Shown here in pieces: positions 4,001 through 32,895 of a DNA stretch of 64,000 nt. The notes beneath the pieces were generated by a model that searched no databases, was not told where the DNA came from, and saw only the letters and a list, made by a program, of their open reading frames with translations. Made by a program: the position numbers and the translations under genes. Within the stretch, counting starts at the first letter, position 1. Every line of letters starts with the position of its first letter. Location: IMG/VR virus record IMGVR_UViG_2703718817_000003; one strand, 5' to 3'. The DNA comes from a virus (taxonomy: Duplodnaviria; Heunggongvirae; Uroviricota; Caudoviricetes).

Positions 4001-7000
4001 GAGAAAAAACCATCGAGGAGAACTCACAGCAAGCTGTCTTTAATGCTGTGGAAATGGGGCGTCTTGACCTGGCGTCTGGTAAACACCGTGATGCGCAGAA
4101 GAAGAACAAGATTAAGGATCAGGCCGCGAATACCGGTACAACGAAGAAGCAGAATATCCCGTACTTTGAGGATATGAACTTCGATAGCGTGATTGCCGAC
4201 GAGGGGCATAACTACCGCAACTCCTTTAATGCCGGGCGTGAAGCGGGACAACTGGCATATTTGCCTAACCCGGCAGTATCCAAGATGGCCCGCGACATGG
4301 CTGTAAAAGCTGCGTACATGATGAAACGCAACAACGGGCGTGGTGTAGTCATGCTGACGGCAACTCCGCTGGTGAACAGTCCGATTGATGCCTTCAACAT
4401 GCTGTCTACTGTCATTCCGCAGGAAGAGTGGATGCGCATGGGCATTATTACGCCGGATGATTTCGTTCGCGTGTTCGGCAAAACAGCCACAGTTCAGGTT
4501 CAGAAAATTTCCGGTGAGGTGGAAGAGAAGCAGGGGCTGGTGGGCTTCCAGAACCTTGATGGTCTGCGTGGTATTTTCCACCGTTGGACCACTCTGAAGA
4601 CTGCCGCAGATGTCGGAGCGACGGTTAAAATTCCCGACATCATCGAGAACACCTTGCAGATCCCGATGACAGGGGAGCAGGAGGCTGCTTATGAAGAGCT
4701 TCGTAAGCGTGCTCAGGAGTTAAGTCGCAATGATGAGCTGACAGTCGATGAAAACGGGCATATCACTAACGACAAACCGGATGATTTCATCTTCTCCATC
4801 ATCCGCGACATGGATAAGGTTGCTATAGATCCGGATCTGTATGCCAGTGCGATTACATTCCAGTTCCCCGTTGAGCTTGCAGACAAGGTAAAAGCTATTG
4901 CGGATGCCCTGCCAAAAGTCGCAGGCGGTAAAGTGGCAGATGATGCAGACGAGGCCGAAGAAGACGGCGCTGGTGGACTGGTCAGTACGCGTACCAGCAA
5001 GGTAGTGAAGACCACCTTTAGTGAACATCCGGCGCATGTTGAAATACGCGCCAGCATTGAACTGGAAGCTGAAATACTGAAGGCCATTGCTGCCGCCGGG
5101 ATTGATCTGCAGCAGGTATCACACCCCATCCCGCCGAAGTATGCCGCGCTGATCGAAAACCTTCGTGAAGGTTTGAAGAACGGTAAACAAATTGTCTTCA
5201 TTGATGAAAAAGCCCAGCACCAGAAGCTGCGCCGTATTATCGCCAGTGCACTGCAAATGCCGGAGCAGGAGATAGGCATTATCAATGCGACGACCGTTAG
5301 CCAGGCTGGCGGCATCAAGCTGAAGAAGGTGAATAAGCCGACTGAACCTACTCCGAATAAAAACGGTGAATACAAAGAAGGGGCATGGGAAACCTACTAC
5401 AGCAAACTTGCCCAATATGAGGATTATCTCTCAGCTAAAAATGATGCTGGCCTTGAGGGTATGGAAGGCATTGCCGCCGACTATAACGAAGGGCGCACGC
5501 GCATCATTATCTGTAACAAGAAGGCTGAAGTAGGTATTAACCTGCATATCGGGACAACCGATATCCACCACCTGACACTACCCTGGACACCAGCCAGTAT
5601 CGACCAACGAAATGGGCGCGGTGCGCGCGTAGGTTCACCGCAAGAGAAGGTCAATGTTCACTACTATTGTGGCAAAGGCACATTCGACGACTTCCGTCTG
5701 GATACGCTGAAACGTAAGAAAGACTGGATCAAGATGGTGATGACCTCCGACATGTCAGAGATCGCCAATGGTGATGCGGATGATGCTGATGAACGCGCCA
5801 TTATGCTGGCGGCAAACCCGGAAGAACGCCGCGCAATCATGGCTCGCCAGGCGCAAGAGCGCGAAGAACGTCTGAAACTGAAAGCACAGCGCGAGGCCAA
5901 CAATGCTCTCGATATCTACCTGAAAGCGGCAAACGCCGCTGGAAAAGATATCGGCATGATGGAGACAGAACTGAAAAGCGCGATGGAACAGATAGAGTAT
6001 TACCAGCGAAATCTTGACGACCTGATAAAAGCGGGTACGAACAGGAATGGGCAAAAATTCGCGCTTGAGCAGTTGAGTAGCTACAGAAAACGTGCGCGGG
6101 TGCTGCGGTTTGCGATCACCAGGGCAAAAGACGCGGATACCATAATGAAACGCTCTCGTGGTGATGTGGAGCGAGCTATTAAGTCTGGTGTGCTGGATAT
6201 CAGTATCGATGTTATTCAGAACCCACAGGAATATATGCGCACTGACAAGAATATCCTGTTGCATAAAGGTAGTTATTACCGTGCAGTCATTGATGATCGC
6301 GAAACAACAGCGATTGTCCGGGTGGAAAAAATTGACGGTGAAAAAGCACAATACCTCTGCCGTATCGCCTGGCTGGATAGAGCAAGTCGTTACGCTCGAT
6401 CACCGGGGTCAATCGTTACATTGCCGTTTGACTCTGTGATTGAAGCGGTAACTTTTGAAGAGGGGGTAGCTGAATCGCGCGCAACGGCTGCGCGTGGTGT
6501 TCAGTGCCACCAGCTATCAACAATACTTACTCGCGATCAGTTCTATGATGCTATTCGCAATGGGGTAATGAATGTTATTGCTGGTAAACCTGGTAATGCA
6601 TGGGGCGGTGGGTCAGCTATTAAATACTGGGCATATCGCACAGATGATGGTCAGATCGCGCTGTCATCGGCCTATGATGGCGTGATAGGCCAAAAAATCG
6701 GGCGAGCATCGGATATAGCACCTGAACGATGGATATATCCAGATGGCAACGATGAGGCGCTGAAGCGTGAAGTGGCAAAAATACAAGCCAGTGATAACCC
6801 GCTGAATATCGTGGACGGCGAGGGATTCCTCCAGGCATTGTATGGGTATGATTACATCCAGGGAATGCAGGCATGGGGCGCACAGGCAACGATGGATGAT
6901 GTTGTCCAGGAGTTCGAAAACTGGATGGCTGGGCGTGGTCTGTCAGGTCGTTCGCTTAATAAAGTCACTTCTGAAGATATTCTTAGCTTGTTCCGCAAAC

Positions 7001-9910: not shown

Positions 9911-11119
9911 ATGAGTCAGCAAGTAGAATCATCAAGCCTGGAGATCATCTCAACCGCAATTGAAACGCTGCGGACACAAATCGCGCTTATACAGAAACGA
10001 AATCCGGGCGATGACCTGTCAAAGCGACTGCATGAGAGCGTCATTGCCACTACAGATAACCTGGTGGCGGAAATCAACCAGCTCCTTGATGATGGGGCAG
10101 TTGATTACAATAAGCTGGTGGATCAGTTTGAGGAGTATCAGCAAGCCGTTAATGATGGCTTGATCCGTTTTTCTCAAGTCACTGGTGTATCAGCGACAGT
10201 TGAAAGCCTGGGGGATGCAGTTAATCAATTTGCCGCGAATATGCGTAATGAGATCGGCAATCTGGAGGCGCGTCTTGAGCAGGCAAATACACTGCGCAAA
10301 TCTGCTGAAGTCGATTTGAGTCGTTACAAAAAAGACTATCCGCCAAGCCTGACAAAACGACTGGATGTTGCGGAGAAAGATAACCGCACGCTGAAAAGAG
10401 AGCGTCGCGAACTAAAAGAGCGTTTAACCAAGCTAAATCAGCAATGCGTTGAGTATCAAGGCGAACTCGTCACACTGCGTAAAAAGTTAGCAGCGGCGCA
10501 GAGCATTATTGAAACATTGAAACGAGAGTGCTCAGAGCTTGGTCATGATCTGAATCGCGCCTGTGGCATGGGGCAAAGGCCAGAGACATTCCCGCTAATG
10601 TATGACGGAAGAGAAGCTATTGCCTATATCCATGAGTTTCCGCATGGTCTGGTCGCGGAGACTGGGCAACGTGGCGAAGCGTTGCTGACGGCAAATTACC
10701 ATCAGCAAATCAGAACCAGCCGCCTGCTGACGATGGATGTGATCCCGTCAGTATGGGGAACGCCGCTTTACTACCGAATTCCTGGCTTCGAAACTGACTG
10801 GAATACCGACATAGACGAATGTCTGGCAGATAAAATTATGGCGTACCTTGAAACGGATTTTCCACGCTTGCATCGCCGGATTATGGACTCTAAGGATGCA
10901 CCGATCGACGAATTGAAAATGCGTCCAGAGACGTTGGAGGCAATCAAGCAGACTGAGTTTGATACAGTGTTCAGTGTGGCCTGCATTCCAAGCAGCTTTC
11001 ATGAAAGCATTCCGTTCATGCAGGGCGATCGCCGTCAGGAAATAATTGATGCTTGCCGGGTATGGGCGAACGAGTGGGATAAGAAGAACGGTGGAGTTGA
11101 AAATCTTTACGGGAAATAA
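9911..11119 (+). CDS. hypothetical protein, N-terminal coiled coil
   Basis: 402 aa ORF with good ATG context (gaaagggaacaaacATG); heptad-rich N-terminal half; bracketed by operator-like motifs. Confidence 0.55.
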   Translation: MSQQVESSSLEIISTAIETLRTQIALIQKRNPGDDLSKRLHESVIATTDNLVAEINQLLDDGAVDYNKLVDQFEEYQQAVNDGLIRFSQVTGVSATVESLGDAVNQFAANMRNEIGNLEARLEQANTLRKSAEVDLSRYKKDYPPSLTKRLDVAEKDNRTLKRERRELKERLTKLNQQCVEYQGELVTLRKKLAAAQSIIETLKRECSELGHDLNRACGMGQRPETFPLMYDGREAIAYIHEFPHGLVAETGQRGEALLTANYHQQIRTSRLLTMDVIPSVWGTPLYYRIPGFETDWNTDIDECLADKIMAYLETDFPRLHRRIMDSKDAPIDELKMRPETLEAIKQTEFDTVFSVACIPSSFHESIPFMQGDRRQEIIDACRVWANEWDKKNGGVENLYGK

Positions 11120-11120
11120 T

Positions 11121-11152
11121 ATGTTAGAAAATTAAAATTGTTTTTCTAACAT
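11121..11152. promoter_or_regulatory. Inverted pair of operator-like motifs (ATGTTAGAAAATTAA ... TTTTCTAACAT)
   Basis: Near-perfect palindrome directly after the 9911-11119 stop. Confidence 0.5.
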
Positions 11153-11980
11153 ATTGATTATGGGGTTAACTTAACATAGAATTTTTCGTGCTGGTGGGGA
11201 GCTTCCCATGTCGCTTGCGGGTTTGATAGTCACTTCATTGTCTTTCCCCACCAGCATCAAACAAATTTAAGTGTTAGAAAGTAAATTTTAAGGTAAGGGA
11301 AAGCTCCGGCACCGTGCAAATACATGCCCGGCAGGTTTAGTGCGTAAAGTGGCTTCAGCGAGAGCATTTTACGGAGTAAACGACAGTGACTTGAGCCACG
11401 GAAGGTCTTTTTATGGTGTTCATTGATGATGATCTGGCAGTGAGTATGTTAAGTGGGCCAGGCTGCATCGGGTCATCATCAGTGCACATCCTCAACGTTA
11501 AGGAGGCGCAGAGTTGGGTTTTCCTCTTATTTTGCTGACTCTGAGTCTCCTTAACGTTGCGGTAATGCACCTATGCGGATGTGGCCTTGCATTGTGTCTT
11601 GAAAGAATGGGGTAAGGCCGGGGATATCCCCAGGGGGAGGCACCCCCGCTGCAACGAACAGCCACAGACGGCAGTCGAGTGATGGAAACGTGCAAAGACT
11701 TTAAACCTCGTTACGGCTGGCGTGGCAAACGCGACAACCGAGACAGAGCGGTGACGGGCGGAGAGAGAGCCGCTTCAAGATAAAAGCCGACTATGGATTC
11801 CTTTCTGCGGGCCTTTGAAAGTGAATCTTGCTCAGGCAGTCGGCTTTTATGTTGATACGTAGCGATAGCCGCGACAGGCGCGGCGGCAAGTATGGCGGGG
11901 TAGTGACTCCTTCCCCCTTATGACGCCGATTTGCCAGGCTGGCCATACGCCTAAGTGGCAATACCGCGAGTGGGATATTT

Positions 11981-12006
11981 GCCCACCTTCGGGTGGGTGT
12001 TTTTTC
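11981..12006 (+). terminator. Rho-independent terminator
   Basis: CCCACC-TTCG-GGTGGG stem followed by TGTTTTTTC, inside an ORF-free region. Confidence 0.55.
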
Positions 12007-12466
12007 AGGGTTTTCGTCATGGTTAGCGACTTTGCGGCGGTTTAGAACCCGACCATTAAAGTAAATGCAAACGATGATCTGATGATGGTAGCGGCCTAAG
12101 AAGCCTGACGCCACGGGGTATGAGTCGTCCCCCGTCAAAAAATCGACCGCAGAGTGTCCCCGTCTGTGTATTAGGGAACGGGGAGGCATAACAGGCAAGG
12201 GCGCTGGTGTGATTAACCAGATGAATGAGAAGGGTCAGGTCTTTCTGGTCAGCGCCCTTACCTGTTACGTCCTTACCGCGTAACAGCCATTGGTTAATGG
12301 CTTTCTGGAATAATGTCTTGTAACGGGTATATCCCGTCATGCTGAAGGCGCTAATCACGCTGGAAGCCAGGGTTATGCATCCCCTGTTACCGAATTGCAG
12401 CCAGGGCGCGGTGCGCCGAAAAGCATACGGAGGTGGAAGCCCTCGCCGGAGACGTACCCGGCAAGT

Positions 12467-12543
12467 GATGGTGTAGCTCAGTAGGATAGAGCAGCAGCCT
12501 TCTAAGCTGTCGGTCGGTGGTTCGAATCCACCCACCATCGCCA
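12467..12543 (+). tRNA. tRNA-Arg (anticodon UCU)
   Basis: Manual cloverleaf: acceptor GATGGTG/CACCATC, D-arm GCTC...GAGC, anticodon loop CTTCTAA, T-arm GGTGG-TTCGAAT-CCACC, encoded CCA. Confidence 0.8.
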
Positions 12544-12548
12544 ATTTA

Positions 12549-12635
12549 GGGGAGTTAGTCCGTAGGGGTAGCGGGGTAGACTGTAAATCTACTGTCATTG
12601 CGACTCGGATGGTTCGACTCCATCACTCCCCACCA
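12549..12635 (+). tRNA. tRNA-Tyr (anticodon GUA), class II with long variable arm; D-arm atypical
   Basis: Acceptor GGGGAGT/ACTCCCC, anticodon arm GTAGA-CTGTAAA-TCTAC, variable arm TGTCATTGCGACTCG, T-arm GATGG-TTCGACT-CCATC, CCA encoded. Confidence 0.6.
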
Positions 12636-12639
12636 AATT

Positions 12640-12715
12640 GCCGGTTTAGCTCAGTTGGTAGAGCAGTCGCTTTGTAAGCGAATGGTCAGCGGTTCGATCC
12701 CGTTAACCGGCACCA
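12640..12715 (+). tRNA. tRNA-Thr (anticodon UGU)
   Basis: Acceptor GCCGGTT/AACCGGC, D-arm GCTC-AGTTGGTA-GAGC, anticodon loop TTTGTAA, T-loop TTCGATC, CCA encoded. Confidence 0.85.
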
Positions 12716-12903
12716 ACACAACAGGTAAGGGTATTTTGCGACATCGGAGATCGCCGAGCTTGGCAGAGGGTTCGAATCCCTACGAAGTACCCTTGCCGTT
12801 GTGATGAATGCACAGGCTGATGTGCCGCAACTACAGTAGTGCGCGCTTTGCGGGGCTTGCTACAACCCTGTGTCGGAGTTCAGCACCGACCATCACAATC
12901 ACT

Positions 12904-12990
12904 GGAGAGTAGGGAGCATGGTGCTCAAGCGGTCTTGAAAACCGTCCCATTGCGCAAGCGATGATGGTTCGATTCCATTACTCTCCGCCA
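12904..12990 (+). tRNA. tRNA-Ser-like (anticodon UGA), class II; D-arm noncanonical
   Basis: Acceptor GGAGAGT/ACTCTCC plus GCCA; anticodon arm GCGGT-CTTGAAA-ACCGT; long variable region; T-arm GATGG-TTCGATT-CCATT. Confidence 0.55.
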
Positions 12991-13419
12991 GCGCAACGTT
13001 AAGAGTATTTGGCTAATTAAGCGAATGCCGGAAGCAGAACCGGATCACCAAATGCGTACAGGCGTCATCGCCGCCCAGTCAGCCAAATGCTCTTACCATT
13101 GCGGTGAATGCGGCTAAGCGCACGCGGAACAGTTAAAACAGTAAAGGTGGTCTTTTTACTGGCGTAACGAGCATCCATAAGTGATCCGGCGTTAATTGTT
13201 AACTGGTTAACGTCACCGGGAGGCACCCGGCACCGCAACCTAACAGCAATGGCGTTTTGTCTTAAAAGGTGGCTGCAAGTGATGGATTTTTGGGCGTTTG
13301 CCGATAAAAACCCGGAGTGGACATTATTGTTTCTGCTGGTGGTTGCATACGGGGTAGAGCAAGCGGCAAAAGCCTTACGCGGTTCTGGCAAAAAGCGTAA
13401 GCGTAATTAACAGTAATCT

Positions 13420-13495
13420 GGCCCTTTAGCTCAGTGGTTAGAGCGGGCGACTCATAATCGCACGGTCACCGGTTCAAGTCCGGTAGGGGCCACCA
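13420..13495 (+). tRNA. tRNA-Ile2-like (anticodon CAU, lysidine type) or tRNA-Met
   Basis: GGCCCTTTAGCTCAGTGGTTAGAGC...CTCATAA...GGTTCAAGTCCGG...AGGGGCCACCA; closely resembles enterobacterial ileX from memory. Confidence 0.75.
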
Positions 13496-13949
13496 CATTT
13501 GGTTGTAACACGGCGTATGGCACATGCGTCGTTAGCGGTCTGGTGTAGCTGTTAGGTGCCTTACTAACACTGCATGGGCACACCAGGTAGCCGGAATGTG
13601 CAAGTCACCGTTGGAGGGATAGCGGACTCAGGGACTCACCATCCTGGCGATTCGGTGTGACAGCCGGAATAGCACGGCGTACAACAGGAAAAGGTGTTTA
13701 ATTAATACGAGCGCCTTCTCCGTTGTGGTAATTGCGGCTATGCGCTCGTGACGAAGCCATTTTCATTCACTACGTTCTGATAAGTGTCGTCGCCGGGCGT
13801 GGCTAACCTGGCAGGTGGAGGCACCACCGCCACAACTCCTTTCAATTCATCATATAGCCGCTCAGGCTGTAACCCTTAATTAATACGAAGTTACGACGTC
13901 ACTACCGGTTCAGCCGGGGGATAGTCGCGCGTGTAAAAAAGGAGACGTT

Positions 13950-14525
13950 ATGTTAACGGCGAACGATAACGCGTATTCAGAAGATGATCTCGTTTTGAGT
14001 GACTTTATAGGGCGACGAGAATGCTGGACGCAAAAGCGCGAGGAGCTTTATGCAGCGTTAGTTCGTAAAGGCGTCAACATCGAAACCGCACAGAACGGTG
14101 ATATGACAGTGGTAAGTGTTGGACTGCACGGCGTAAGCGTGTCAGCAATCAATCATGAGCCGTACATTGCGTTATCCGAGTCAATGGTAAGGTTAGTTAA
14201 GTTCCTGAAGTACACAGAAGCGAATAACGTGCTCATCGCCAAAAAGAACATCCCGTTCTCATCGGCCTTTTACTGGATGATGAAGGGGCTTGATGCCCGG
14301 CGAACATCATGGCCTAAAGGGAGCTATATATCGATGCTCCGTGGCAGTGTTGGCAGCAAAGAAAAGCTCGTCGAATTCCTGCCGGAAGAGGCATTCGATA
14401 TTGTTGAAGGTTGTGATGTGATGGTTATGCCTCGCCTGGTAATGATGAATGGGGATTTACAGGCACAGACAGACTGGTTTGCAACTGGTGTTGATATTAT
14501 CGCTACTGACTGGGAGGTTTTTTGA
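13950..14525 (+). CDS. hypothetical protein with C-terminal DUF2829-like domain
   Basis: 191 aa; C-terminal FSSAFYWMMKGLDARRTSWPKGSY...TDWFATGVDIIATDWEVF has the W...RR..W...DW-x-V pattern. Confidence 0.5.
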   Translation: MLTANDNAYSEDDLVLSDFIGRRECWTQKREELYAALVRKGVNIETAQNGDMTVVSVGLHGVSVSAINHEPYIALSESMVRLVKFLKYTEANNVLIAKKNIPFSSAFYWMMKGLDARRTSWPKGSYISMLRGSVGSKEKLVEFLPEEAFDIVEGCDVMVMPRLVMMNGDLQAQTDWFATGVDIIATDWEVF

Positions 14526-20829: not shown

Positions 20830-21174
20830 TTGCACAATCGTATTACGGAATCAAAACGCTTCACTGTTGACGGTTACACCATAACCTTCACTGCGGGCGT
20901 TAAGCGCGACCAGGCGGTCGTGGTGTTCGGTGTTATGACCGGACTTGATGCCGTTCCCGTATTTACCCTCGAAAAAAACTGGCGAAATCTGGAGGAAGCT
21001 GAACGCTACGTCCGGAAAGTAACCGTCATTGCTGCTGAAAAACTCCTGGCCCACTATCAGGAAAATTATCGCGCTATGACCGAGAAAATTAACCATGTTT
21101 TCACTCGCCCCACCAGCGGCTTCATTGCCCCTGATGCGAATGCCGGGCGCTATCCGGCAAGGGGGCGCAAATGA
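20830..21174 (+). CDS. hypothetical protein (cre-adjacent)
   Basis: 114 aa ORF. Confidence 0.45.
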   Translation: MHNRITESKRFTVDGYTITFTAGVKRDQAVVVFGVMTGLDAVPVFTLEKNWRNLEEAERYVRKVTVIAAEKLLAHYQENYRAMTEKINHVFTRPTSGFIAPDANAGRYPARGRK

Positions 21175-21659
21175 AAACTTACTACCCATCTCTGAACTGC
21201 TATCCAACCACTAATCCTGAGCTGTCAGGGAAACTTCTGTCCCTCCTGGCTGATAGTCCTGATGAATGGCATAAGCCTGGTGATATCAACACACAGTTCC
21301 CTGAGTACGGGTGTATCCGCACCCGAAATGAGCTGAAGAACCTCATTGCTCACGGTTTTGTCCGTCACCGTAGCGGGAAAGGCTATCAGTTGGCTATCCC
21401 ACAAGGAGAGGCAAGAGAACTCTTTGGCTATCGAGAAAGCCAGACGCAAGCGCGGGTGATCGCAGAAATTATCCGTAATGGCAGCGTCTATGCCCGCAAA
21501 TTCTGGCTGTCTGGCGGTGGCGATGCATCACAGTTCTTGCGTGCTGTGCGATCGCTGGAGGAACAAGGTGTAATCGAGAATACCTGCGTCTCCGTTCCGA
21601 CCGCTCCGCATATCAAACGCCGGATTTATACATTTACCCGGAGAGCTAAAAAGCAATGA
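21171..21659 (+). CDS. hypothetical protein
   Basis: 162 aa ORF, 4-nt overlaps with both neighbours. Confidence 0.5.
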   Translation: MKTYYPSLNCYPTTNPELSGKLLSLLADSPDEWHKPGDINTQFPEYGCIRTRNELKNLIAHGFVRHRSGKGYQLAIPQGEARELFGYRESQTQARVIAEIIRNGSVYARKFWLSGGGDASQFLRAVRSLEEQGVIENTCVSVPTAPHIKRRIYTFTRRAKKQ

Positions 21660-22150
21660 TTAACGTGAAAGTGAAACGCCTTCATCCGGCGGCAAAACTC
21701 CCCGTTTACGCCACCGCCGGATCGGCGGCGATGGATTTTGTTGCTGTTGAAATAACGCCTGGTATCGATAGCAATGGCGCTATTTCCTCAAGCTGGTGGG
21801 TGCATACCGGCCTCGCTATGGCGATCCCTCCTGGCTGGTGTCTGAAACTTTATCCTCGTTCCGGATTGGGCTGCAAAAAGCATACGCGCCTGGCTAACTG
21901 CGTAGGAATTATCGACGCCGATTATCGCGGTGAAATCATGGCAAAACTGATTACAGATCCTGGTGGTGAAGGTGTTTGCCTCAAGCCTGGAATGGCGGTC
22001 ATGCAAGGCATTTTTGAGCGTGTTGAACCGGTATCGCTGGTAGAAGTTGATGAACTCGATGAAACAGAGCGAGGTGCTGGTGGCTTTGGTAGCACATCGG
22101 AAGACCGCATTGAAATCAAGCGTACACCGCTTCAGTACGAAAAGTTTTAA
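21656..22150 (+). CDS. dut: dUTP diphosphatase (dUTPase)
   Basis: 164 aa; motif 3 GIIDADYRGEI and C-terminal motif RGAGGFGSTS. Confidence 0.8.
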   Translation: MINVKVKRLHPAAKLPVYATAGSAAMDFVAVEITPGIDSNGAISSSWWVHTGLAMAIPPGWCLKLYPRSGLGCKKHTRLANCVGIIDADYRGEIMAKLITDPGGEGVCLKPGMAVMQGIFERVEPVSLVEVDELDETERGAGGFGSTSEDRIEIKRTPLQYEKF

Positions 22151-22164
22151 GTAGAGGAAAGATT

Positions 22165-22851
22165 ATGGCCAGCACTTTTCAGGTGTTCCCCAAATACAAA
22201 AGCCACAGCATCATTCGGGCATCGAAAATCAAAGATATTGTTATTGTCGGCGAAGCTTATGCGCCCATTTTTGGCAGTATCGAAGTCGTGGAGCCAAAAG
22301 GAATGACGCTTCGTGTTGATGGTGTGTTCTTGGAAAAATTCCGACCGCAAATAGGAGGATATCTCGTCACTGCTGAAAATGGCTATCTGGTCTATGTGCC
22401 AGAGAAAGCATTTGAAAAATGCTATAGCCGGGTTAACGACGCCTCCGAAAATGGGGTATCGCTCAGCATTGAAGGTCACAATGGGGTGACATTCATTACA
22501 GCCAGGGACGTAACTATTTCTGCAGGCGGTATCGCTACTCTACAAGAAGAAATCGACCTTGAAGCAGCCGACTTTTCTGACGCGCTGATGTGGCTGAAGG
22601 ATGGCAAGAAAGTTGCCCGGCGCGGGTGGAATGGCGAAAACCAATTCTGCTGGCTGGTTCCAGACAAACAGGGCGCTTCAAGACTAACCCCTATAAAACA
22701 TGCCATCAATGGAGAGCTTGAAATCAATTTCGACTCTCCTCTTGCTCCTTATGGTACGCATTTCGCTTTGAAAAATGCACAAGGTGTAGTTGTTCCGTGG
22801 GTGCCTTCAGTTGGCGACCTGCTGGCCTGTGACTGGTTTGTTGTGGAGTGA
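22165..22851 (+). CDS. Two-domain protein with C-terminal DUF2829 (Tad2-family-like) domain
   Basis: 228 aa; C-terminal FSDALMWLKDGKKVARRGWNGENQFCWLV...VVPWVPSVGDLLACDWFVVE matches the DUF2829 pattern as recalled. Confidence 0.55.
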   Translation: MASTFQVFPKYKSHSIIRASKIKDIVIVGEAYAPIFGSIEVVEPKGMTLRVDGVFLEKFRPQIGGYLVTAENGYLVYVPEKAFEKCYSRVNDASENGVSLSIEGHNGVTFITARDVTISAGGIATLQEEIDLEAADFSDALMWLKDGKKVARRGWNGENQFCWLVPDKQGASRLTPIKHAINGELEINFDSPLAPYGTHFALKNAQGVVVPWVPSVGDLLACDWFVVE

Positions 22852-22857
22852 TTTAAC

Positions 22858-23655
22858 GTGGAAAATACCAAGAACATTCAATATCGCCTGCGTAACGGCC
22901 TGCTGGTGGATGTAAACGATGATATGTCCCTGCCCTTTGCCACCATTGAGCGAACCATCCTTACATACCTGGGTTTAGACGAAGAGTTAGATAGTGAGAA
23001 TGGCATTGCTATCTGGCGTGACGGAAAAACGGGAGTCAGACGTTTTATTACGGCAAGAGGCATTCAGTGCACACAGGAAGAATTGTTTGAACTGGCGCAG
23101 TCTTATGGATGCATCGCGTTAGATCCCCTGCATGACCCAGCCATAGCGCAACAACTCATTCGAGAGCTGTCGCTTTCGGTCACGCCAATAATCTTCCGCC
23201 AGGGAACCTTAACCGGCACATGGCGTGTAGAACGCATCTCTAAATATCAGCCATATAATATCCATTTGAACGGCACTATTACTGGTGTGGATCAACCAGT
23301 AGCAGGTGAAAACAAAGACCTGGAACTTGCAGTAATGATGGCTGCTTGTCGCGTGCTTGGCCTGGGCAAGCAGATGTTTATCCATTTCCCAAACGGCGCG
23401 GAAGGCGAAGTAGAGCTGATTTCCTGCGACTTTTCCTTAACCTGGATGCTTGATGAATTCCTGGACAAAACAGTATTCCGTGCTGAAGAACTGGATATGT
23501 ATGTCACCTCAAGTATTCCTAATGACGTGAAAGTTGAGGCCATCGCTACAGCCAGGGCGAAATGCCGTGCGGCGATTGCAGAACAGGCCAAAGAAGAACA
23601 GTCCGATGAAGTCGCGGCAGATGTGGAAGCAGAGGATGCTGATGCTGACGCCTAA
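22858..23655 (+). CDS. hypothetical protein with acidic C-terminal tail
   Basis: 265 aa; GTG start; C-terminus EEQSDEVAADVEAEDADADA. Confidence 0.5.
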   Translation: MENTKNIQYRLRNGLLVDVNDDMSLPFATIERTILTYLGLDEELDSENGIAIWRDGKTGVRRFITARGIQCTQEELFELAQSYGCIALDPLHDPAIAQQLIRELSLSVTPIIFRQGTLTGTWRVERISKYQPYNIHLNGTITGVDQPVAGENKDLELAVMMAACRVLGLGKQMFIHFPNGAEGEVELISCDFSLTWMLDEFLDKTVFRAEELDMYVTSSIPNDVKVEAIATARAKCRAAIAEQAKEEQSDEVAADVEAEDADADA

Positions 23656-23735
23656 AAGCAAGAAATTAGCTGGCTGACAGCAGAAAAAATCATTGAGTGA
23701 TAGTAGGAAGCCCGCTTGGTTGAGCGGGCTTCTTT

Positions 23736-24116
23736 TCAAATATTGGAACCATATAGTTCACGTAGTTTTTCCGCTACTGAAGATACGGGGATTTCACCAG
23801 TTGCAGCCCCCACCGCAAGTTCCACCAGCACGGGAGAATCATATACCTGTATACCGTTACGGCGTAGAAATAGCAGCGCACTGTTTAGCGCGGTACGCTT
23901 ATTGGCATCATTGAATATATGCCCTCTCGCAGTAGCCACCAGGTAGGTGGCGGAGACTTCGAAAAGGCCGGTGATCTCTTCGTAGGCAACTCTGGCCTGA
24001 ACTCTCCCGATAATGGCCTCTGCCCTACCCGGATCTGACATTCCCGGCAGGCCGCCGTAGCGGTTTATATTCGCATCATGAAGCGCAATAAGTTCTTCCG
24101 GTGATATATGCCTCAT
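23736..24116 (-). CDS. doc: Doc toxin (Fic-fold kinase) of the phd-doc addiction module
   Basis: 126 aa; near-identical to P1 Doc as recalled ([38 protein letters not shown]). Confidence 0.9.
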
Positions 24117-24337
24117 TATCGGTTAACCAGTTCCTTGTTAGTGGAGTCCAGGGTGTCAAACAGGGATGCAAATTCAGCATCCAGCGCCGCTTTTTTGTAG
24201 GCTTCGAAAGTAGCCTTGCTGACAATTACTGCTGGCTCACGGCCTCTGCGGGTGATTTCAACCTCTTCACCGGCTTCAACATTGTTGAGCACTTCAGAAA
24301 GGTTGCCACGCGCGGTACGGAAGTTAATGGATTGCAT
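24116..24337 (-). CDS. phd: Phd antitoxin
   Basis: [49 protein letters not shown]... matches P1 Phd as recalled; ATG at 24337 preferred over track start 24343; stop overlaps doc start. Confidence 0.9.
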
Positions 24338-24409
24338 AAACACCTCGTGTACTCGTTATGTGTACACAATTATAAACTTCACAGGCATAAAGCACCAGCA
24401 CTTTGCAGC

Positions 24410-24799
24410 TTAAATAACCGGACAATCATCAAATTCCCCACTCCGGGCATCATTGATGATGTGAGTGATCACGCCAAACACAGCATTGCTACCAGTATAT
24501 CCATCATCATCCACTGGCAACGCCTCTTTCTTCCCGGTGCTTAAATCTTCCAGGTGCTGGCTCGGATGCTTCCGGTATCTCTTTATGCGATATTCCCCCT
24601 CTATAGCGCATACAAGCAGTGAACCATCAACCGGAGTAAGTGAGGAATCAACCACCAGCAAAGCACCTTGCAATATTCCCTCACGGTGATGGCTGTCTGC
24701 CGCCCGCATGAAGTAGGTCGCTGAAGGATGTCTGATTAGTTGCTGATCAAGAGAAATACGGCTCTCTGCATAATCCGCCGCAGGAGAAGGGAAGCCCAT
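24410..24799 (-). CDS. humD: UmuD-like SOS mutagenesis protein (HumD-like)
   Basis: 129 aa; LexA/UmuD-type peptidase fold (...VVDSS...GSLLVCAIEGEYRIKRY...); gene order hot-lxr-humD-phd-doc as in P1. Confidence 0.75.
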   Translation of the reverse strand: MGFPSPAADYAESRISLDQQLIRHPSATYFMRAADSHHREGILQGALLVVDSSLTPVDGSLLVCAIEGEYRIKRYRKHPSQHLEDLSTGKKEALPVDDDGYTGSNAVFGVITHIINDARSGEFDDCPVI

Positions 24800-24898
24800 A
24801 GCGTTTTACCTCAATGATACTGTTTATTCATACAGTATACATTGAAAAGGCATAGTTTGTGAAAGCGGGGTTTGTACGCGCGCCACGCTGGGGGCTAA

Positions 24899-25249
24899 TC
24901 ACATTGGTGGCGTGAACGTGCCATTCATATATTGCAAAATGCTTGACTCGATTTTTTCATTAAAATCAGAATGATGCTCCTCAAGGACAAAGCGCGCCTT
25001 ATTGTTGCGCACAATAACCTCCGCCAACGGCTTAACCAGAGATGTGGAGTTAGAGATTTTCTCGGCGCGCTCTACATCGCTTTTAAACGTTACGATGAAG
25101 TGCTGGTGGCCTGGTGACCGGCGACACAACATGCGTCGCACTTCCACGGTATCTTCACGGCCTTGAGTATGTACAGGAAAGCTATCGACCACCGCTGTAT
25201 TGGTGCGGATTGTCTGCATAGAACGCGTGTTGTCGTGATAGTTAAGCAT
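24899..25249 (-). CDS. hypothetical protein (position of P1 lxr)
   Basis: ORF 24899-25291; start placed at ATG 25249 (MLNYHDN...), which has a GGGGGAG Shine-Dalgarno and avoids overlap with hot. Confidence 0.45.
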   Translation of the reverse strand: MLNYHDNTRSMQTIRTNTAVVDSFPVHTQGREDTVEVRRMLCRRSPGHQHFIVTFKSDVERAEKISNSTSLVKPLAEVIVRNNKARFVLEEHHSDFNEKIESSILQYMNGTFTPPM

Positions 25250-25274
25250 GTTTAATGTCTCCCCCATCTTGCCG

Positions 25275-25526
25275 TTATTTTTTTGGTGCATCCTCGTTCT
25301 GATACACCGGATCGCTCCCTTTTGGCAGCAGGAGGCTTAACTGCCGGTAGTGCCGTAGCCGTTCCATGAAATAGGCGCGCAGGTTTTCCGGTTGCTCACG
25401 GGCCACCTGCTCTGCAATCACAGGTATATTCAGTCGTTCTTTGTAAGCAACGCCGCTGGCGGCAAGGTCTACGTTCACCTTGTCTCGCTCTTCCTGGCTT
25501 TTAGCTGCTATATTTCGATCTGACAC
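25275..25526 (-). CDS. hot: Hot: homolog of DNA polymerase III theta subunit (HolE)
   Basis: 83 aa; [43 protein letters not shown] parallels E. coli HolE as recalled. Confidence 0.8.
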
Positions 25527-25558
25527 AAGAAACCTCCCGGAGTTAGTGGATCAGGCAC

Positions 25559-25909
25559 ATGCACAATAACGTTCTCAATGTTAGCCGTTCAATTCAGACA
25601 ATCAGAGACTGCACCAGTGTGGTGGCATCAATCCCATTGCGAAACAGCATAGACGAACTGCAAATTCGTGTATTGAATCTGAATCAGGCTAATAAGCAAT
25701 TGCGCTTTATTTTGACGCTGAAAAGTGAAACAGAGGGGATAAAGCACAGCGTAAAAGTATTTTCTGAGGCCATTCTGCTTAATGGGAAGCTCCGGCATCT
25801 GGTAAGGCCAGAACGTCAATATCCTGACGTCCTGGCGCGTGAAAAAGACCTTCTTTCCGAAGTTCAGAATAGGGTGATCGATTTCGTTAAATGCCACCCA
25901 CTACAATGA
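25559..25909 (+). CDS. hypothetical protein (uncertain; only plus-strand ORF in a minus-strand block)
   Basis: 116 aa ORF, largely overlapped by the antisense ORF 25628-25897. Confidence 0.3.
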   Translation: MHNNVLNVSRSIQTIRDCTSVVASIPLRNSIDELQIRVLNLNQANKQLRFILTLKSETEGIKHSVKVFSEAILLNGKLRHLVRPERQYPDVLAREKDLLSEVQNRVIDFVKCHPLQ

Positions 25910-25965
25910 TTTGTAGTAACCAGGGGTACTGCGGGTAGCCAAAACTACAAGCTCACCAGTCATCA

Positions 25966-26781
25966 TTAATACCGGCATTCATAGCATGAGTATCTCCACT
26001 GTTCATGGTCAAAGCACCAGAATGCTTCCCTGGGCAGATTGTGTTTGTTCATTAGCGCCAATACTTGCGTAGGCGTATTCGCGGGAATTTCTGGTAGTAA
26101 AGCCTTCGCCATTTCATGAACCAACATGGCATCAATGACGCCTAGCGTATGGCCTGCCTTAATCTTTAATGCAGTTTCAAGATAGCTCCTTTCCAGAGTT
26201 GTGCTTACTCTTGGCTTCGGCACCTCTTGTGGATGAGTATCCAGACGGTTGCCAGATTCATAGGCTACCCGCAGCCAGTGCATGAATGTTTCAGTAGACA
26301 CACAACCGCAGTCCAGGTCGATTTTTTCGCGTTGTTGCCCCAGCCATTGCTCAAAATTTAACTTATTGGATGCTTCAAGAGCCTCTTCGTATTGTTTGCG
26401 CGAAATTATTTCCGTGTATTCCTCGCGATAAAGGTTACTTATCGGAAGCCTGACCTCAAGGCAAAAATTGCGCCCACACGGGCTTTTCGCTGGATCAGAG
26501 CCAAAAGCAAAGAAACCATATGATGGTTCACAGCAGTCCTCTCTAACCATGCGACAATCGAGCATATCATCAGGCCACCCTCCACGCTTTGGCAGCTCCT
26601 GCACCAACAAGTCAATCAGCTTTATACTCTCACCGTCTTTGCAGGTTGCTAACGCTATTTGGGCAAGCTCCAATACCTCATCTGCCGTGTATCCAGCGCC
26701 GTGTCCATACATTTCGATGCGTGCAATAATCTCTGATATGCGGAATTTAGTGATTTTAGTCATAGTTTTATTTCCTTGCAT
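25966..26781 (-). CDS. hypothetical protein, Cys-rich
   Basis: 271 aa; several CxxC-like pairs; no recognised domain. Confidence 0.5.
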   Translation of the reverse strand: MQGNKTMTKITKFRISEIIARIEMYGHGAGYTADEVLELAQIALATCKDGESIKLIDLLVQELPKRGGWPDDMLDCRMVREDCCEPSYGFFAFGSDPAKSPCGRNFCLEVRLPISNLYREEYTEIISRKQYEEALEASNKLNFEQWLGQQREKIDLDCGCVSTETFMHWLRVAYESGNRLDTHPQEVPKPRVSTTLERSYLETALKIKAGHTLGVIDAMLVHEMAKALLPEIPANTPTQVLALMNKHNLPREAFWCFDHEQWRYSCYECRY

Positions 26782-26969
26782 GGTTCGCCTTTACGGCATA
26801 CAGCTACACGGTCATTTCTTACATTAACCACTGTCACCGTTCCGTCATCACATTGAATAACGATGAAAGGGTGTTCATTCTCTTTTGTGCAATGTTGCTG
26901 TTCTCCAGCCATTGCAGCCGGAGGAGCAAATAGCGCCAGAACAAATGCCAACCTTAAAAAATGCTTCAT
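26760..26969 (-). CDS. small secreted Cys-containing protein
   Basis: 69 aa; signal peptide MKHFLRLAFVLALFAPPAAMA; overlaps downstream gene by 22 nt. Confidence 0.45.
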   Translation of the reverse strand: MKHFLRLAFVLALFAPPAAMAGEQQHCTKENEHPFIVIQCDDGTVTVVNVRNDRVAVCRKGEPCKEIKL

Positions 26970-27210
26970 TTGGCCTTATCCGTTATCAAAATTGGAATAT
27001 CCGTTATCACGAGCGTGATATCCGTTATGAAGGGGGTAATAAAATTACTTAGTAATACCCTCCTCCAGACTGAACGCCAGCGATAACCCAGGCTGCAAGA
27101 AGCGTAAATCCACTCCCAGCTTCACATTCAAGCGTTCCCCATTCAACACCACCAGCCAACAAAACAAATAACAAACAAAAAAGTAATCCAAAATTTCTTT
27201 CTGTTTTTCA

Positions 27211-27510
27211 TTATGGTTGACTCCAGTTATCTTCAATAACAATGCTCAATCTTTGTAGCCATTCTGCTAACTTCAGCATTGCTTCTCTTTCGCTTAAACC
27301 ACGAGGGAAATCATCAAGCGATATTGTTGGCTTGAAATTCCCGAAATTATCCATTTCAACGGTCAGATTTTGCTCCAGCACGGTATTCCTTACGCGGCTA
27401 TTGTGCCGGAGCAAATATACTGAGCGCGATTTATTGGTTTTGTGGTCTAGCTTATATTCGGTAAGTATCATATGGCTTCTGCCATGATTATTACCGCGCC
27501 ACATAATCAC
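27211..27510 (-). CDS. hypothetical protein
   Basis: 99 aa ORF. Confidence 0.4.
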   Translation of the reverse strand: MIMWRGNNHGRSHMILTEYKLDHKTNKSRSVYLLRHNSRVRNTVLEQNLTVEMDNFGNFKPTISLDDFPRGLSEREAMLKLAEWLQRLSIVIEDNWSQP

Positions 27511-27516
27511 TCCGTG

Positions 27517-27918
27517 TTAATAAGAAAAGTAGACCGTTGCGACTCTGTTATATTGATCGAACGAAATAGCATTTACTTCATAGCTGGTGGGTATCTTTTC
27601 GCCAAGAATGTAACCAGGCCATGATTTCCACGGAATTTCTGCTCGTTCGTCATGCCACACTGCGCAACCAAGAGAACCGACCGTCTCTCCATACCGTTTT
27701 CCGCAAGTAACAAAGCCTATATTTGGCTTATCTTGCGTGACTGCTACAGTGGTAGTATTTGCGGATGCATTGATTGCAGTGCGTTGCTCCTGCTCGCTTG
27801 CGGCTGAGGCGCTAATTGCTGCCGTTGTTGCGGCGGTTGCAACAATAACCGATGCATGTGATAAATGGCAGGCAGATAACATTGCCAGAAAAATAATAGT
27901 TCTCCGAAATTTAGCCAT
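27517..27918 (-). CDS. secreted protein (signal peptide)
   Basis: Start chosen at ATG 27918 (MAKFRRTIIFLAMLSACHLSHA...); Ala/Thr-rich linker then Cys-containing domain. Confidence 0.45.
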   Translation of the reverse strand: MAKFRRTIIFLAMLSACHLSHASVIVATAATTAAISASAASEQEQRTAINASANTTTVAVTQDKPNIGFVTCGKRYGETVGSLGCAVWHDERAEIPWKSWPGYILGEKIPTSYEVNAISFDQYNRVATVYFSY

Positions 27919-28094
27919 TGATTTACCCTTTATTGCGAACATATTTAGCTGTGTGTTGCCGATGCGCGGAGATTCTCTTATATCAATTCCACGCGCTCTG
28001 CTAACGAGCAATCCAAATAATCATCCGGATGCTTGTCGGTGTTATTAATGATGCGAATCCTCAAATCTTTTCACCTTTGAGGATAAGTTGCAGG

Positions 28095-28773: not shown

Positions 28774-28784
28774 TGGATTTGCCC

Positions 28785-29690: not shown

Positions 29691-30013
29691 TTTTTTGCAC
29701 GCCCGTATTCAACGGCTTCTTTAAGGAGTTCATTTTCCATCGTTTTTTTGCCGAGCAGGCGCTGGAGTTCTTTAATCTGCTTCATGGCAACAGCAAGTTC
29801 AGAGGCAGGAACGACCTGCTCTCCTGCGGCCACAGCAGTAAGACTTCCCTCCTGGTATTGCTTGCGCCAGAGAAATAACTGGCTGGCTGCCACACCGTGT
29901 TGCCGGGCAACAAGGGAGACCGTCATTCCCGGTTCAAAACTCTGCTGAACAATAGCGATCTTTTCCTGTGTAGTACGCCGTCTGCGTTTCTCCGGTCCTA
30001 AGACATCAATCAT
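29648..30013 (-). CDS. insC: IS2 transposase OrfA (InsC), HTH
   Basis: [53 protein letters not shown]...; start at ATG 30013 with GGAGAG Shine-Dalgarno. Confidence 0.85.
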
Positions 30014-30477: not shown

Positions 30478-30487
30478 AAATTATGCC

Positions 30488-32846: not shown

Positions 32847-32895
32847 GCCACTACCTATTCGAACAGATGAACGAGATTTGATGCATACTCACGGT

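Follow-up and report, generated by a model that had tools for sequence, protein, structure and literature searches.

What is the role of three small hairpins with an identical loop which are found in and around a group of tRNA genes in a D6/P1-like phage-plasmid? We call window the whole stretch of 64,000 nt which was analysed. On its + strand we find the perfect hairpins GGGGG-AGGCA-CCCCC in positions 11633-11647, CCGGG-AGGCA-CCCGG in 13216-13230 and GGTGG-AGGCA-CCACC in 13814-13828, exactly where the initial annotation had placed them. The sequence AGGCA is not enriched in the window (149 observed vs 141 expected), and no other AGGCA loop in it is closed by five Watson-Crick pairs. On the - strand, in positions 4384-4398, there is one more AGGCA loop whose closure needs a G-U pair. 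In 300 dinucleotide-preserving shuffles of the window we never found three perfect 5+5+5 hairpins which share a loop of any sequence and lie within 2.3 kb; 50 of the 300 had two such hairpins, and none had more. Given these shuffles and the conservation of the element in relatives, we have rejected chance as an explanation. A search of the literature with the hairpin sequences found no paper.

The hairpins are part of a larger unit. Each of them had been described as followed by a tail of similar sequence. Such tails exist (GCTGCAAC, CACCGCAA(C) and GCCACAAC), and they are more than a loosely shared motif. Each tail is complementary to a stretch of 8 nt found 70-120 nt upstream (GTTGCGGT, TTGCGGTG and GTTGTGGT); therefore the tails are the 3' strand of a closing helix, P1. 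The functional unit is not a hairpin of 15 nt with its tail, as it had been proposed: the hairpin is one arm of a module of 100-140 nt with five helices. They are found in a constant order: the closing helix P1 (8-9 bp), a joiner AAU (3 nt), a small hairpin P2, a variable hairpin P3, another hairpin P4, an invariant A and finally P5, with its 5-bp stem and AGGCA loop. The 3' side of P5 directly abuts the 3' strand of P1, and P5 is therefore able to stack on it. The minimum free energy (MFE) fold of every window copy taken separately has this same layout. The three copies are listed here, with their scores in R1, a covariance model described below.

11556-11655, + strand: module c1 (MFE fold; R1 55.0 bits, E 2.8e-11). 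P1 5' strand 11556-11563, joiner (AAT) 11564-11566, P2 11567-11582, P3 11583-11619, P4 11620-11631, linker A 11632, P5 11633-11647, P1 3' strand 11648-11655.
13099-13238, + strand: module c2 (Rfam STnc100 match below threshold; R1 122.5 bits). P1 5' strand 13099-13106, joiner 13107-13109, P2 13110-13125, P3 13126-13187, P4 13188-13214, linker A 13215, P5 13216-13230, P1 3' strand 13231-13238.
13722-13836, + strand: module c3 (MFE fold; R1 75.1 bits). P1 5' strand 13722-13729, joiner 13730-13733, P2 13734-13749, P3 13750-13791, P4 13792-13812, linker A 13813, P5 13814-13828, P1 3' strand 13829-13836.

It is solidly established that a single family of structured RNA is present here in three copies, which diverged anciently, and that each hairpin is the P5 arm of one of them. 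Compared with the family, c1 has two compensatory pairs in P2 (G-C to A-U and G-C to C-G). Module c3 has homologues among the Lastavirus phages of Klebsiella and in two lambdoid phages, Eeyore and LLS. A possible fourth, degenerate copy found 5' of tRNA-Arg (GCCGG-AGACGTAC-CCGGC, ~12446-12463) was discarded, as it has no R1 match at E<=10.

Covariation of the stems had been taken as a sign of a functional RNA structure. This holds for the + strand, and the orthologues add independent compensatory changes: P5 of c2 is CCGGG/CCCGG in the window and CCTGG/CCAGG in D6 and Qin, while G-U pairs in helix P1 of c1 become A-U in relatives. In 27 representatives the helices P1, P2 and P5 taken together are paired at 98.4%, compared with 88.4% in shuffles, with changes on both sides in eight pairs. 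The covariation score is 0.317 vs 0.146: it was reached by none of 500 shuffles, and slid controls remained at or below 0.067. RNAalifold recovers the same three helices independently. Within the c2 type covariation is also found in P4 and in the base of P3. G-U pairs are frequent, with U-G in 12 of the 27 representatives at one position of helix P1 and G-U in 7 of the 27 in P2. They would become C-A mismatches on the other strand, so that the pairing fits only an RNA from the + strand; a reading of the element on the - strand did not show an equal conservation of pairing.

Conservation of P5 was determined in 122 copies which had been ascertained through the P2 box and helix P1 alone, not through P5. 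The loop is AGGCA in 116 of them and differs by one base in the remaining six; the stem is fully paired in 121 copies and the linker A is present in all of them. GGAGG is invariant across the boundary between the stem and the loop. The P2 loop has the form UNNGC, with a different sequence in 933W. A tertiary contact between the P2 and P5 loops may be imagined; neither of them varies enough for a test by covariation.

The covariance model R1 was built without STnc100, an Rfam family which is discussed below. It contains c1-c3 in its seed alignment, and the R1 scores of the window copies are for this reason not independent evidence. All three have the features of the R1 family: covarying P1, P2 and P5, the AAU joiner, the A before P5 and the AGGCA loop. 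A covariance model search in relatives, as the initial annotation had suggested, does find further copies, in 933W, HK639, Qin and E. coli genomes. Two kinds of evidence are independent: the structure counts, and the R1 matches to sequences which do not belong to the seed (933W, HK639 and E. coli genomes).

The databases have catalogued the family only partly, since they capture a single subtype of it, STnc100 (RF02076), a prophage-encoded sRNA of Gammaproteobacteria. The Rfam model matches c2 in positions 13100-13237 with 40.8 bits and E 2e-6, below its gathering score of 47. In this alignment model positions 31-147 cover the hairpin and the closing helix of c2. For c1 and c3 there is no Rfam STnc100 match at E<=10. 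The STnc100 consensus has CACCGGGAGGCACCCGGCACC within the same closing helix and contains the hairpin CCGGG-AGGCA-CCCGG verbatim. In the reverse direction R1 matches the STnc100 core of phage 933W with 56 bits and E 2e-11; this same 933W sequence, used as a control, scores 207.7 bits with the Rfam model. Homology is thus shown both ways. All three window copies have the core architecture of STnc100, with a closing helix and several hairpins, the last of them abutting the 3' strand; the AAU joiner, the single A before P5 and the phage or prophage setting are also common. The sequences of P2, P3 and P4 differ. STnc100 has in addition a 5' leader and a Rho-independent terminator ~25 nt after helix P1 (model positions ~170-200), which delimits a discrete sRNA of ~200 nt, whereas the window copies have no terminator nearby and are embedded between tRNAs and ORFs. 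In phage 933W, for example, STnc100 is found 75 nt downstream of stxB2. PasD1 and PasD2 of EPEC are Hfq-dependent sRNAs confirmed by northern blots (PMC8550237; bioRxiv 10.64898/2026.05.13.724894); their kinship to the STnc100 family is taken from the report in the preprint (bioRxiv 10.64898/2026.05.13.724894). For STnc100 itself there is a report, based on qPCR alone, of its presence in outer-membrane vesicles (PMC12370729).

The surroundings of the three copies contain other RNA elements:

11477-11575, + strand: P0 of c1, a long imperfect hairpin (inverted repeat, MFE fold), with core arms 11494-11514 and 11538-11558.
11869-12005, + strand: stretch homologous to the DicF precursor of Qin (190 nt) in its 5' part (alignment with Qin, phage P1 and D6).
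12467-13495, + strand: tRNA genes Arg-UCU, Tyr-GUA, Thr-UGU, Ser-UGA and Met/Ile2-CAU (ARAGORN; Rfam).
12989-13106, + strand: P0 of c2 (inverted repeat, MFE fold), with core arms 13000-13014 and 13081-13095.
13691-13717, + strand: P0 of c3, a short hairpin, AAGGTGTTT / GAGCGCCTT (MFE fold).

The five tRNAs are presumably co-transcribed with the modules. These had been described as flanking the tRNA cluster, which is true of c1 on its 5' side and of c3 on its 3' side, but c2 is found inside it, between tRNA-Ser and tRNA-Met. The P0 hairpin of c1 lies directly 5' of the module, and the extended form of its 3' arm reaches into the P1 5' strand and P2, so that an alternative fold arises: once the sequence 5' of the module is added, the long P0 is preferred to P1/P2 in the MFE structure (z = -5.2). 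This hairpin is a candidate substrate for RNase III, as judged from its predicted fold. In c2 the extended P0 is formed by the sequence right after tRNA-Ser (CAGCGCAAC), which pairs with the P1 5' strand. With P0 included, helices P1 and P2 are disrupted in the MFE folds of c1 and c2; the five-helix fold may therefore form only after processing, or only part of the time. The loop of the c3 P0 carries the first copy of TTAATTAATACGA.

Behind the DicF precursor homologue come a seed-like stretch of its own and an intrinsic terminator (11980-11999, followed by a T-run). The equivalent stretch is annotated in phage P1 as 'dicF-like region'. It is not DicF itself: the Rfam DicF model matches Qin and not the window, and only the 5' part of the precursor is homologous. 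In a scan of positions 10900-14200 this is the sole terminator of the + strand, 325 nt after c1, and none was found after c2 or c3. Since they have no terminator nearby, unlike STnc100, the copies c1-c3 may not yield Hfq-type sRNAs at all. The window also contains a C4 RNA, and an ORF similar to the anti-defence gene Tad2 adjoins the island. Several other elements were considered and rejected. Promoter hairpins of the N4 type or T7-like promoters, which were suggested by TTAATTAATACGA, do not agree with the P1/D6-like nature of the window, and the motif occurs only twice. Integron attC-like sites were discarded by inspection only: the GTTG.../...CAAC ends are oriented opposite to R''/R' and the core is unfit. 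In the region Rfam gave no match, with limits of E<=1 to 10, to the hammerhead, to other ribozymes or to riboswitches.

A relative of c2 is informative about processing. Copy c2 is ~80% identical to the spacer between dicF and dicB in Qin and lambdoid prophages. In E. coli K-12 the Qin module matches R1 with 117 bits (Qin stretch 4455-4582) and lies at K-12 coordinates 1649454-1649581; it has the same P2 and P4 sequences as c2, its P5 is CCTGG-AGGCA-CCAGG, and upstream of it there is a DicF-type sRNA region, as in the window. The K-12 RefSeq record and the literature which we examined give no feature or name of its own to this spacer. In lambdoid copies helix P1 is extended to ~21 bp (21 bp predicted in Qin). 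The window copies lack this extension, and separate P0 hairpins are predicted there instead. [quoted passage not shown] By our own counting on the K-12 sequence from the published lengths, this cut falls inside the extended P1 of Qin and outside the hairpin itself; it coincides exactly with the outer boundary of the 9-bp P1 which is conserved. Of the two roles which had been proposed for the hairpin, processing signal and protein-binding site, the first would thus have indirect support. As an RNase III site we considered a duplex of ~20 bp or more, which may be coaxial, together with a mapped RNase III-dependent end. In the window copies, RNase III may cut at the long P0 hairpins which are predicted there.

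The module is found in 4673 of 5426 complete E. coli genomes (~86%), with up to 9 copies per genome, and it is unannotated among the E. coli genomes listed. It is also present in P1/D6-like phage-plasmids, Stx phages and Klebsiella phages. Members of the family include the dicF-dicB spacer of Qin and the leaders of kil, dicB and tciA in lambdoid and P1-like phages, where the ORF starts 28-41 nt downstream of the core. In 933W and in Eeyore/LLS the core is followed by a single-stranded stretch and a terminator, in LASTA by a tRNA at a distance of 4 nt, and in HK639 the R1 copy lies between Q and the holin gene. The module is often placed at the boundaries between mosaic gene cassettes. A specific relation with tRNA clusters does not extend to the family: most copies belong to lambdoid prophages with no tRNA nearby. 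Among 60 IMG/VR loci scanned for a general association only the five P1/D6-like contigs had a tRNA near the module, and the association is confined to P1/D6-like elements and Lastavirus.

We propose, with a probability of about 0.6, that the module is an RNA domain within polycistronic phage transcripts which is excised or delimited by RNase III, and that its loop is a recognition surface. The identity of the module is solid; for its function and mechanism we infer the following steps. In the window the modules would be transcribed on the + strand, in a non-coding island with five tRNAs and a DicF-like sRNA, and each would fold as a compact domain inside the polycistronic transcript. RNase III would cut the long helices at the base of the module: the extended P1 in lambdoid copies, the P0 hairpins in the window. 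These cuts would part the upstream RNAs (sRNA, tRNAs) from those downstream (small ORFs, a tRNA, or a seed with its terminator). A nuclease-resistant core with the 9-bp helix P1 would remain, and the AGGCA loop, presented on the stack of P1 and P5, may serve as contact surface for a putative partner: a host protein or, alternatively, a tertiary contact.

Other readings start from the neighbours of the module. It could be a cis-acting 5' leader of the ORF which follows, often a toxic small protein (DicB, Kil, TciA/B), which would insulate the ribosome binding site from upstream RNA, stabilise a processed 5' end or offer the GGAGG of P5 as a ribosome standby site. Copies of the c2 type do have a start codon with a good Shine-Dalgarno sequence 28-41 nt after P1; in the window there are ATG codons in positions 11682, 13282 and 13950, which are 27, 44 and 114 nt after c1, c2 and c3 (the ORF starting at 13282 is annotated in a close relative), and GGAGG is invariant in P5. 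However this GGAGG is half buried in the stem, and the core may also precede a terminator (933W, HK639), a seed-like stretch with a hairpin (Eeyore/LLS) or a tRNA (LASTA). The downstream elements vary and therefore an ORF is not a feature of the family, so that we find a leader unlikely. The module might instead imitate a tRNA, as a substrate of tRNA enzymes such as RNase P or the CCA-adding enzyme, or as a decoy for host nucleases which target tRNA: P1 would take the place of the acceptor stem, P2 and P3 those of the D and anticodon arms, P4 that of the long variable arm found in class II tRNAs, and P5 that of the T arm. The C4 RNA of phages P1 and P7 is a substrate of RNase P, and C4 is present in the window, whose island lies beside the Tad2-like ORF. 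The helices follow the order of a class II tRNA, with a joiner of 2-3 nt after P1, a P5 of 5 bp and no nucleotide between P5 and the P1 3' strand, as in the junction of T stem and acceptor; tRNA genes of the same strand are interleaved with the modules in P1/D6-like elements or lie 4 nt away in LASTA. Against this, ARAGORN calls only the five true tRNAs, and neither it nor the Rfam models for tRNA, tmRNA and tRNA-Sec recognise any copy. A tRNA would have a T loop of 7 nt, GG in its D loop, an acceptor stem of 7 bp and a discriminator with CCA. In the module the P5 loop has 5 nt (AGGCA), the P2 loop also has 5 nt, P1 has 8-9 bp and up to 21 bp in lambdoid copies, no NCCA is conserved after P1, and among the 60 loci scanned tRNAs are near it in no more than the five contigs mentioned above. 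The resemblance to class II tRNAs and tRNA-like RNAs (the tmRNA domain, the C4 of P1) is in layout only, and mimicry appears quite unlikely to us.

The P5 hairpin might also act by itself, either as a protein-binding site similar to boxB or as a nuclease signal. Its stem of 5 bp and its nearly invariant loop of 5 nt have the geometry of lambda boxB, but the loop sequence differs and is not a GNRA-like pentaloop, P5 is never free-standing, with no isolated copy in the window, and an N-like gene is not a shared neighbour. All the 122 copies ascertained independently of P5 have it in the same position of the module, after the A and directly before the P1 strand, and an autonomous hairpin is accordingly very improbable. 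We consider highly unlikely a related proposal, a processive antiterminator RNA similar to put or nut which would make the RNA polymerase pass the terminators of the island or operon. The module shares with lambda nut and HK022 put a location in early or late phage operons with terminators: all copies are found in long operons with internal terminators, c1 precedes the terminator in 11980-12005, and in Eeyore and LLS the module is found shortly downstream of the repressor gene and before other genes of the early left operon, the place of nutL and putL. Several copies also have a boxA-like TGCTCTT(A/T) just 5' of P1, but this stretch is predicted to be paired within P0. There is no R1 match in the put regions of HK022 (21000-33000) or in the putL-like RNA of HK639 (34187-34312), and the position of the module in Qin and 933W is after the terminator or beside it, not before it. 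The put RNA has ~70 nt and two stem-loops and is placed just downstream of pL/pR (PMC9378689). Finally, a site which acts at the DNA level, perhaps a recombination linker as suggested by its frequent place at cassette boundaries, or a chance similarity, is extremely improbable: the G-U pairing is specific for one strand, compensatory changes are found in five helices, and the shuffles never reproduced the cluster.

Several neighbours of the module have practical relevance: stx2, dicB, kil and tciA, together with phage tRNAs and a Tad2-like anti-defence gene. In the window, ~2.8 kb of 'non-coding' DNA can be read again as an organised array of tRNAs, a DicF-like sRNA and three modules. In the dicBF operon of K-12 a conserved structure can now be assigned, by our counting, to the mapped RNase III site. 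A model for the whole family allows the annotation of these RNAs, and the dicF-dicB region of Qin is a simple genetic system for tests. A more speculative idea, to which we give a low probability, is that the module is a tRNA-shaped domain which punctuates the operons of Enterobacteriaceae phages, with the P1-P5 stack and its AGGCA loop read by a host factor. Such a factor might belong to host tRNA or RNA processing, and in tRNA islands the domain could also be a decoy for defence nucleases directed against tRNA. If this idea is true, it would give a function to an unannotated RNA of ~86% of the complete E. coli genomes, including that of the dicBF operon.

The three hairpins with an AGGCA loop described in the initial annotation are confirmed by a read-out of the sequence:

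11633-11647, + strand, GGGGG-AGGCA-CCCCC, in copy c1
13216-13230, + strand, CCGGG-AGGCA-CCCGG, in copy c2
13814-13828, + strand, GGTGG-AGGCA-CCACC, in copy c3

AGGCA as such shows no enrichment in the window (149 occurrences, about 141 expected). Only in these three places is it a loop closed by five Watson-Crick pairs; at 4384-4398 on the - strand closure needs one G-U pair. None of 300 dinucleotide-preserving shuffles of the window gave three perfect 5+5+5 hairpins with any common loop within 2.3 kb, and chance is rejected as the origin of the cluster, as had been argued before. The tail which follows each hairpin is also real, but it is not a loose motif: it pairs with an 8-nt stretch found 70-120 nt upstream (GTTGCGGT / GCTGCAAC in c1, TTGCGGTG / CACCGCAA in c2 and GTTGTGGT / GCCACAAC in c3). 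Folded in isolation, each copy has the same layout: a closing helix P1, the joiner AAU, a small P2, a variable P3, P4, one unpaired A, P5, which is the AGGCA hairpin, and the 3' strand of helix P1, with 0 nt between the latter and P5. The modules are:

11556-11655, + strand, module c1
13099-13238, + strand, module c2
13722-13836, + strand, module c3

The RNA structure of this module is under selection. In an alignment of 27 representatives (A2), 98.4% of the cells in helices P1, P2 and P5 are paired, compared with 88.4% after shuffling, and in eight pairs both partners change. For covariation the score is 0.317, versus 0.146 in shuffled alignments, none of which reached 0.317 in 500 trials; when the partners are slid by 1-3 columns it is at most 0.067. 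RNAalifold recovers helices P1, P2 and P5 independently. Within the c2 type, P4 shows the exchanges G-C/U-A/A-U and U-A/G-C, and the base of P3 covaries too. G-U pairs are common in A2: U-G is found in 12 of the 27 sequences at one position of helix P1, G-U in 7 of 27 at one position of P2. Such pairs would be mismatched on the opposite strand; therefore the selected molecule is the + strand RNA, and a site acting at the DNA level is rejected. The functional RNA structure proposed for the hairpins is thus upheld, but not as a free-standing unit of 15 nt, since each hairpin is arm P5 of a larger module; a free-standing boxB-like hairpin is rejected for the same reason.

In order to avoid circularity about the P5 hairpin, we gathered 122 copies by the P2 box and helix P1 alone. 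Their P5 loop is AGGCA in 116 cases, AAGCA in 3, AGGAA in 2 and AGGCG in 1. All 122 have the A before P5, and the P5 stem is fully paired in 121, with a single mismatch in the other one. A covariance model built without STnc100 (R1), whose seed includes the window copies, finds exactly three copies in the window, and most IMG/VR loci have a single one.

Elements of this kind are already known, because the hairpin and its closing helix belong to a curated Rfam family. Positions 13100-13237 of c2 match RF02076 (STnc100) with 40.8 bits (E 2e-6), below the gathering score of 47; the consensus of this family holds CACCGGGAGGCACCCGGCACC within the same closing helix. A search of Rfam with c1 and c3 gave no match even at E<=10. 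The bona fide STnc100 of phage 933W (207.7 bits) lies 75 nt after stxB2, with the AsxR sRNA beside it in antisense; in it a leader precedes the same five-helix core, and a Rho-independent terminator follows. R1 detects this core, absent from the seed, with 56 bits (E 2e-11), and also a copy in HK639 between Q and the holin gene. The covariance-model search suggested for related phages has in this way yielded further copies, in the IMG/VR loci, 933W and HK639. Prophages encode both STnc100 and its PasD relatives; of the latter, PasD1/2 are northern-confirmed, Hfq-dependent sRNAs (PMC8550237; bioRxiv 10.64898/2026.05.13.724894; PMC12370729). Relatives of the module yield stable, Hfq-associated sRNAs.

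Each copy has its own distribution. Relatives of c2, with about 80% identity, are found in many lambdoid phages. Of 5426 complete E. coli genomes, 4673 carry this type, at up to 9 places each; none of the E. coli matches listed has an annotated RNA feature beneath it. The K-12 copy of this type, in Qin, makes up the spacer that separates the dicF terminator from dicB (4455-4582 of locus L006). Other phages have it 5' of kil or dicB, and phage P1 has it 5' of tciA with the loop AAGCA. D6 has all three copies; its c2 stem, CCTGG/CCAGG, is a compensatory change with respect to the window. The search for the c1 type found it only in D6-like elements. Klebsiella Lastavirus phages have relatives of c3, and so do two lambdoid phages, Eeyore and LLS. 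Only 4 nt separate the module of LASTA from the tRNA-Arg that follows it; in Eeyore and LLS the module lies shortly 3' of a cI-like repressor gene, ahead of other early left operon genes, and is followed by CTGTGTGTAG and a GC-rich stretch that forms a hairpin, an sRNA-like arrangement. Of 131 loci, 45 have this decamer, each a single time, among them L009 and L010 (2146-2160); it lies either just after the module, with the same kind of GC-rich stretch behind it, or about 80 nt before it, the position of DicF. It probably serves as seed in a family of prophage sRNAs that has no name yet. In a scan of one genome per species, true modules were seen only in genera of Enterobacteriaceae, with the exception of a few MAGs filed under other names; these have near-identical copies of the E. 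coli type, and their contigs are probably mis-binned. No module was present at the other sites that fitted the search pattern. Klebsiella phage SopranoGao shows a weaker second copy (L008 1771-1864, R1 28.2 bits, E 8.5e-5) about 140 nt upstream of the main one. It overlaps a hypothetical CDS annotated at 1781-1951, which may be a miscalled ORF.

In the order of its five arms and in its P5/P1 junction the module is similar to a class II tRNA, and in P1-like elements the modules are interleaved with tRNAs. Mimicry of such a tRNA is nevertheless unlikely: the loops differ in size from those of a tRNA, none of the tRNA models recognises a copy, a CCA end is missing and tRNAs are absent from the surroundings of most copies. 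A leader for downstream ORFs, which are often toxic, suits the c2 type, but not the copies followed by a terminator or a tRNA. Antitermination of the put or nut type is not supported by sequence or structure, and R1 has no match in HK022 21000-33000 or at the putL-like RNA of HK639. What follows the core is variable. It can be an ORF 28-41 nt away, a tRNA after 4 nt, or a seed with a terminator. This variety speaks for a portable domain that serves processing or stability, and against a regulator of one particular gene.

Such a domain could be released by cleavage. In the Qin copy helix P1 is extended to a predicted 21 bp, which start 8 nt after the 3' end of the 53-nt DicF. By our mapping, nucleotide 72 of DicF, the 3' end generated by RNase III (PMC5069750, PMC9438474), lies within this helix and coincides exactly with the outer edge of the family's conserved 9-bp P1, so that RNase III would detach the core from DicF and presumably, at its other end, from the dicB mRNA. 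Copies c1 and c2 have no such extension; they are preceded by long imperfect hairpins (P0) with arms of 38 and 35 nt, whose 3' arms overlap the 5' strand of helix P1. With P0 included, the minimum-energy fold prefers it over P1/P2, which suggests that in the window the five-helix fold could form once P0 is cut. The near-invariant AGGCA loop, at the end of the P1-P5 stack, is the obvious candidate for a recognition surface.

A boxA-like stretch, TGCTCTT(A/T)CC, is found directly 5' of the module in several subtypes: window c2 (13087-13094), phage P1 (L003), D6, L110 and Eeyore; rrn boxA is TGCTCTTTAACAA and that of lambda CGCTCTTA. It is the predicted 3' arm of P0 and is absent from Qin-type copies.

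The window region has 90% identity with Escherichia phage D6 across 84% of its length, parts of it are similar to the ban-operon leader of phages P1 and P7, and it recurs with 92-98% identity in many phage-plasmids, about 90 kb in size, from E. coli and Salmonella. The modules lie in a mostly non-coding island (11120-13950) with five tRNA genes on the + strand. Its borders and the Rfam RNAs above gathering score elsewhere in the window are:

9911-11119, pmgS-like gene, bounding the island on one side
13950-14525, + strand, ORF bounding it on the other side, followed by lpa and pacA homologues
40711-40789, + strand, isrK (62.7 bits)
40834-40921, + strand, C4 antisense RNA (77.1 bits)
47025-47210, + strand, sroH (113 bits)

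The pair isrK and C4 is the immI-type region expected of a P1-like element. The ORF just 3' of c3 (191 aa) has a C-terminal Tad2-like domain (Thoeris anti-defence 2; Pfam PF11195, E 4.4e-10, 40.4 bits), which suggests that the island adjoins an anti-defence gene; NCBIfam gave no match to this protein, which RefSeq names 'MW1434 family type I TA system toxin' in a close relative. Positions 11869-12005 (+ strand) are homologous to the 5' portion of Qin's DicF precursor (190 nt) and match the annotated 'dicF-like region' of phage P1. Their 3' segment is different and ends in an intrinsic terminator, TGCCCACCTTCGGGTGGGTG plus a T-run (11980-12005). The Rfam DicF model does not match this region, probably a DicF-analogous sRNA with a different seed.

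The island has other features as well. A perfect 14-nt inverted repeat, AATATGTTAGAAAA / TTTTCTAACATATT, just after pmgS (11118-11155) overlaps two sigma-70-like promoter matches (11097-11125 and 11154-11182), and TGTTAGAAAGTAAA from this area is found again at 11272; by analogy with Pban/Oban of phage P1 the site at 11118-11155 could be a repressor-controlled island promoter. The interval between tRNA-Thr and tRNA-Ser includes, at 12716-12800 (+ strand), a possible tRNA gene that is degenerate or split, with GAGGGTTCGAATCCCTAC resembling a T arm and GGTAAGGGTA/TACCCTTGCC as terminal helix; ARAGORN and Rfam both make no call there. The sequence (C/G)AAGTGATGG occurs three times on the + strand (11674-11684, 12458-12468 and 13274-13284): after c1 and after c2 it includes the ATG of the next small ORF, and the one at 12458-12468 is directly 5' of tRNA-Arg. 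These repeats may mark a cassette-recombination junction. Two exact copies of TTAATTAATACGA on the + strand, 178 nt apart, flank c3 (13698-13710, in the P0 hairpin loop, and 13876-13888, about 60 nt upstream of the Tad2-like ORF). It is not a dispersed operator, because the window has just one further site within 2 mismatches.

The evidence for the module is purely computational, and the family is ubiquitous. Beyond Rfam and the cited literature, we find that c1 and c3 are divergent members which the Rfam model cannot see, that one and the same core makes up the dicF-dicB spacer as well as the leaders of kil, dicB and tciA, and that it is present without a terminator in the tRNA islands of P1/D6-like elements. 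In Qin it would coincide with the old RNase III site.
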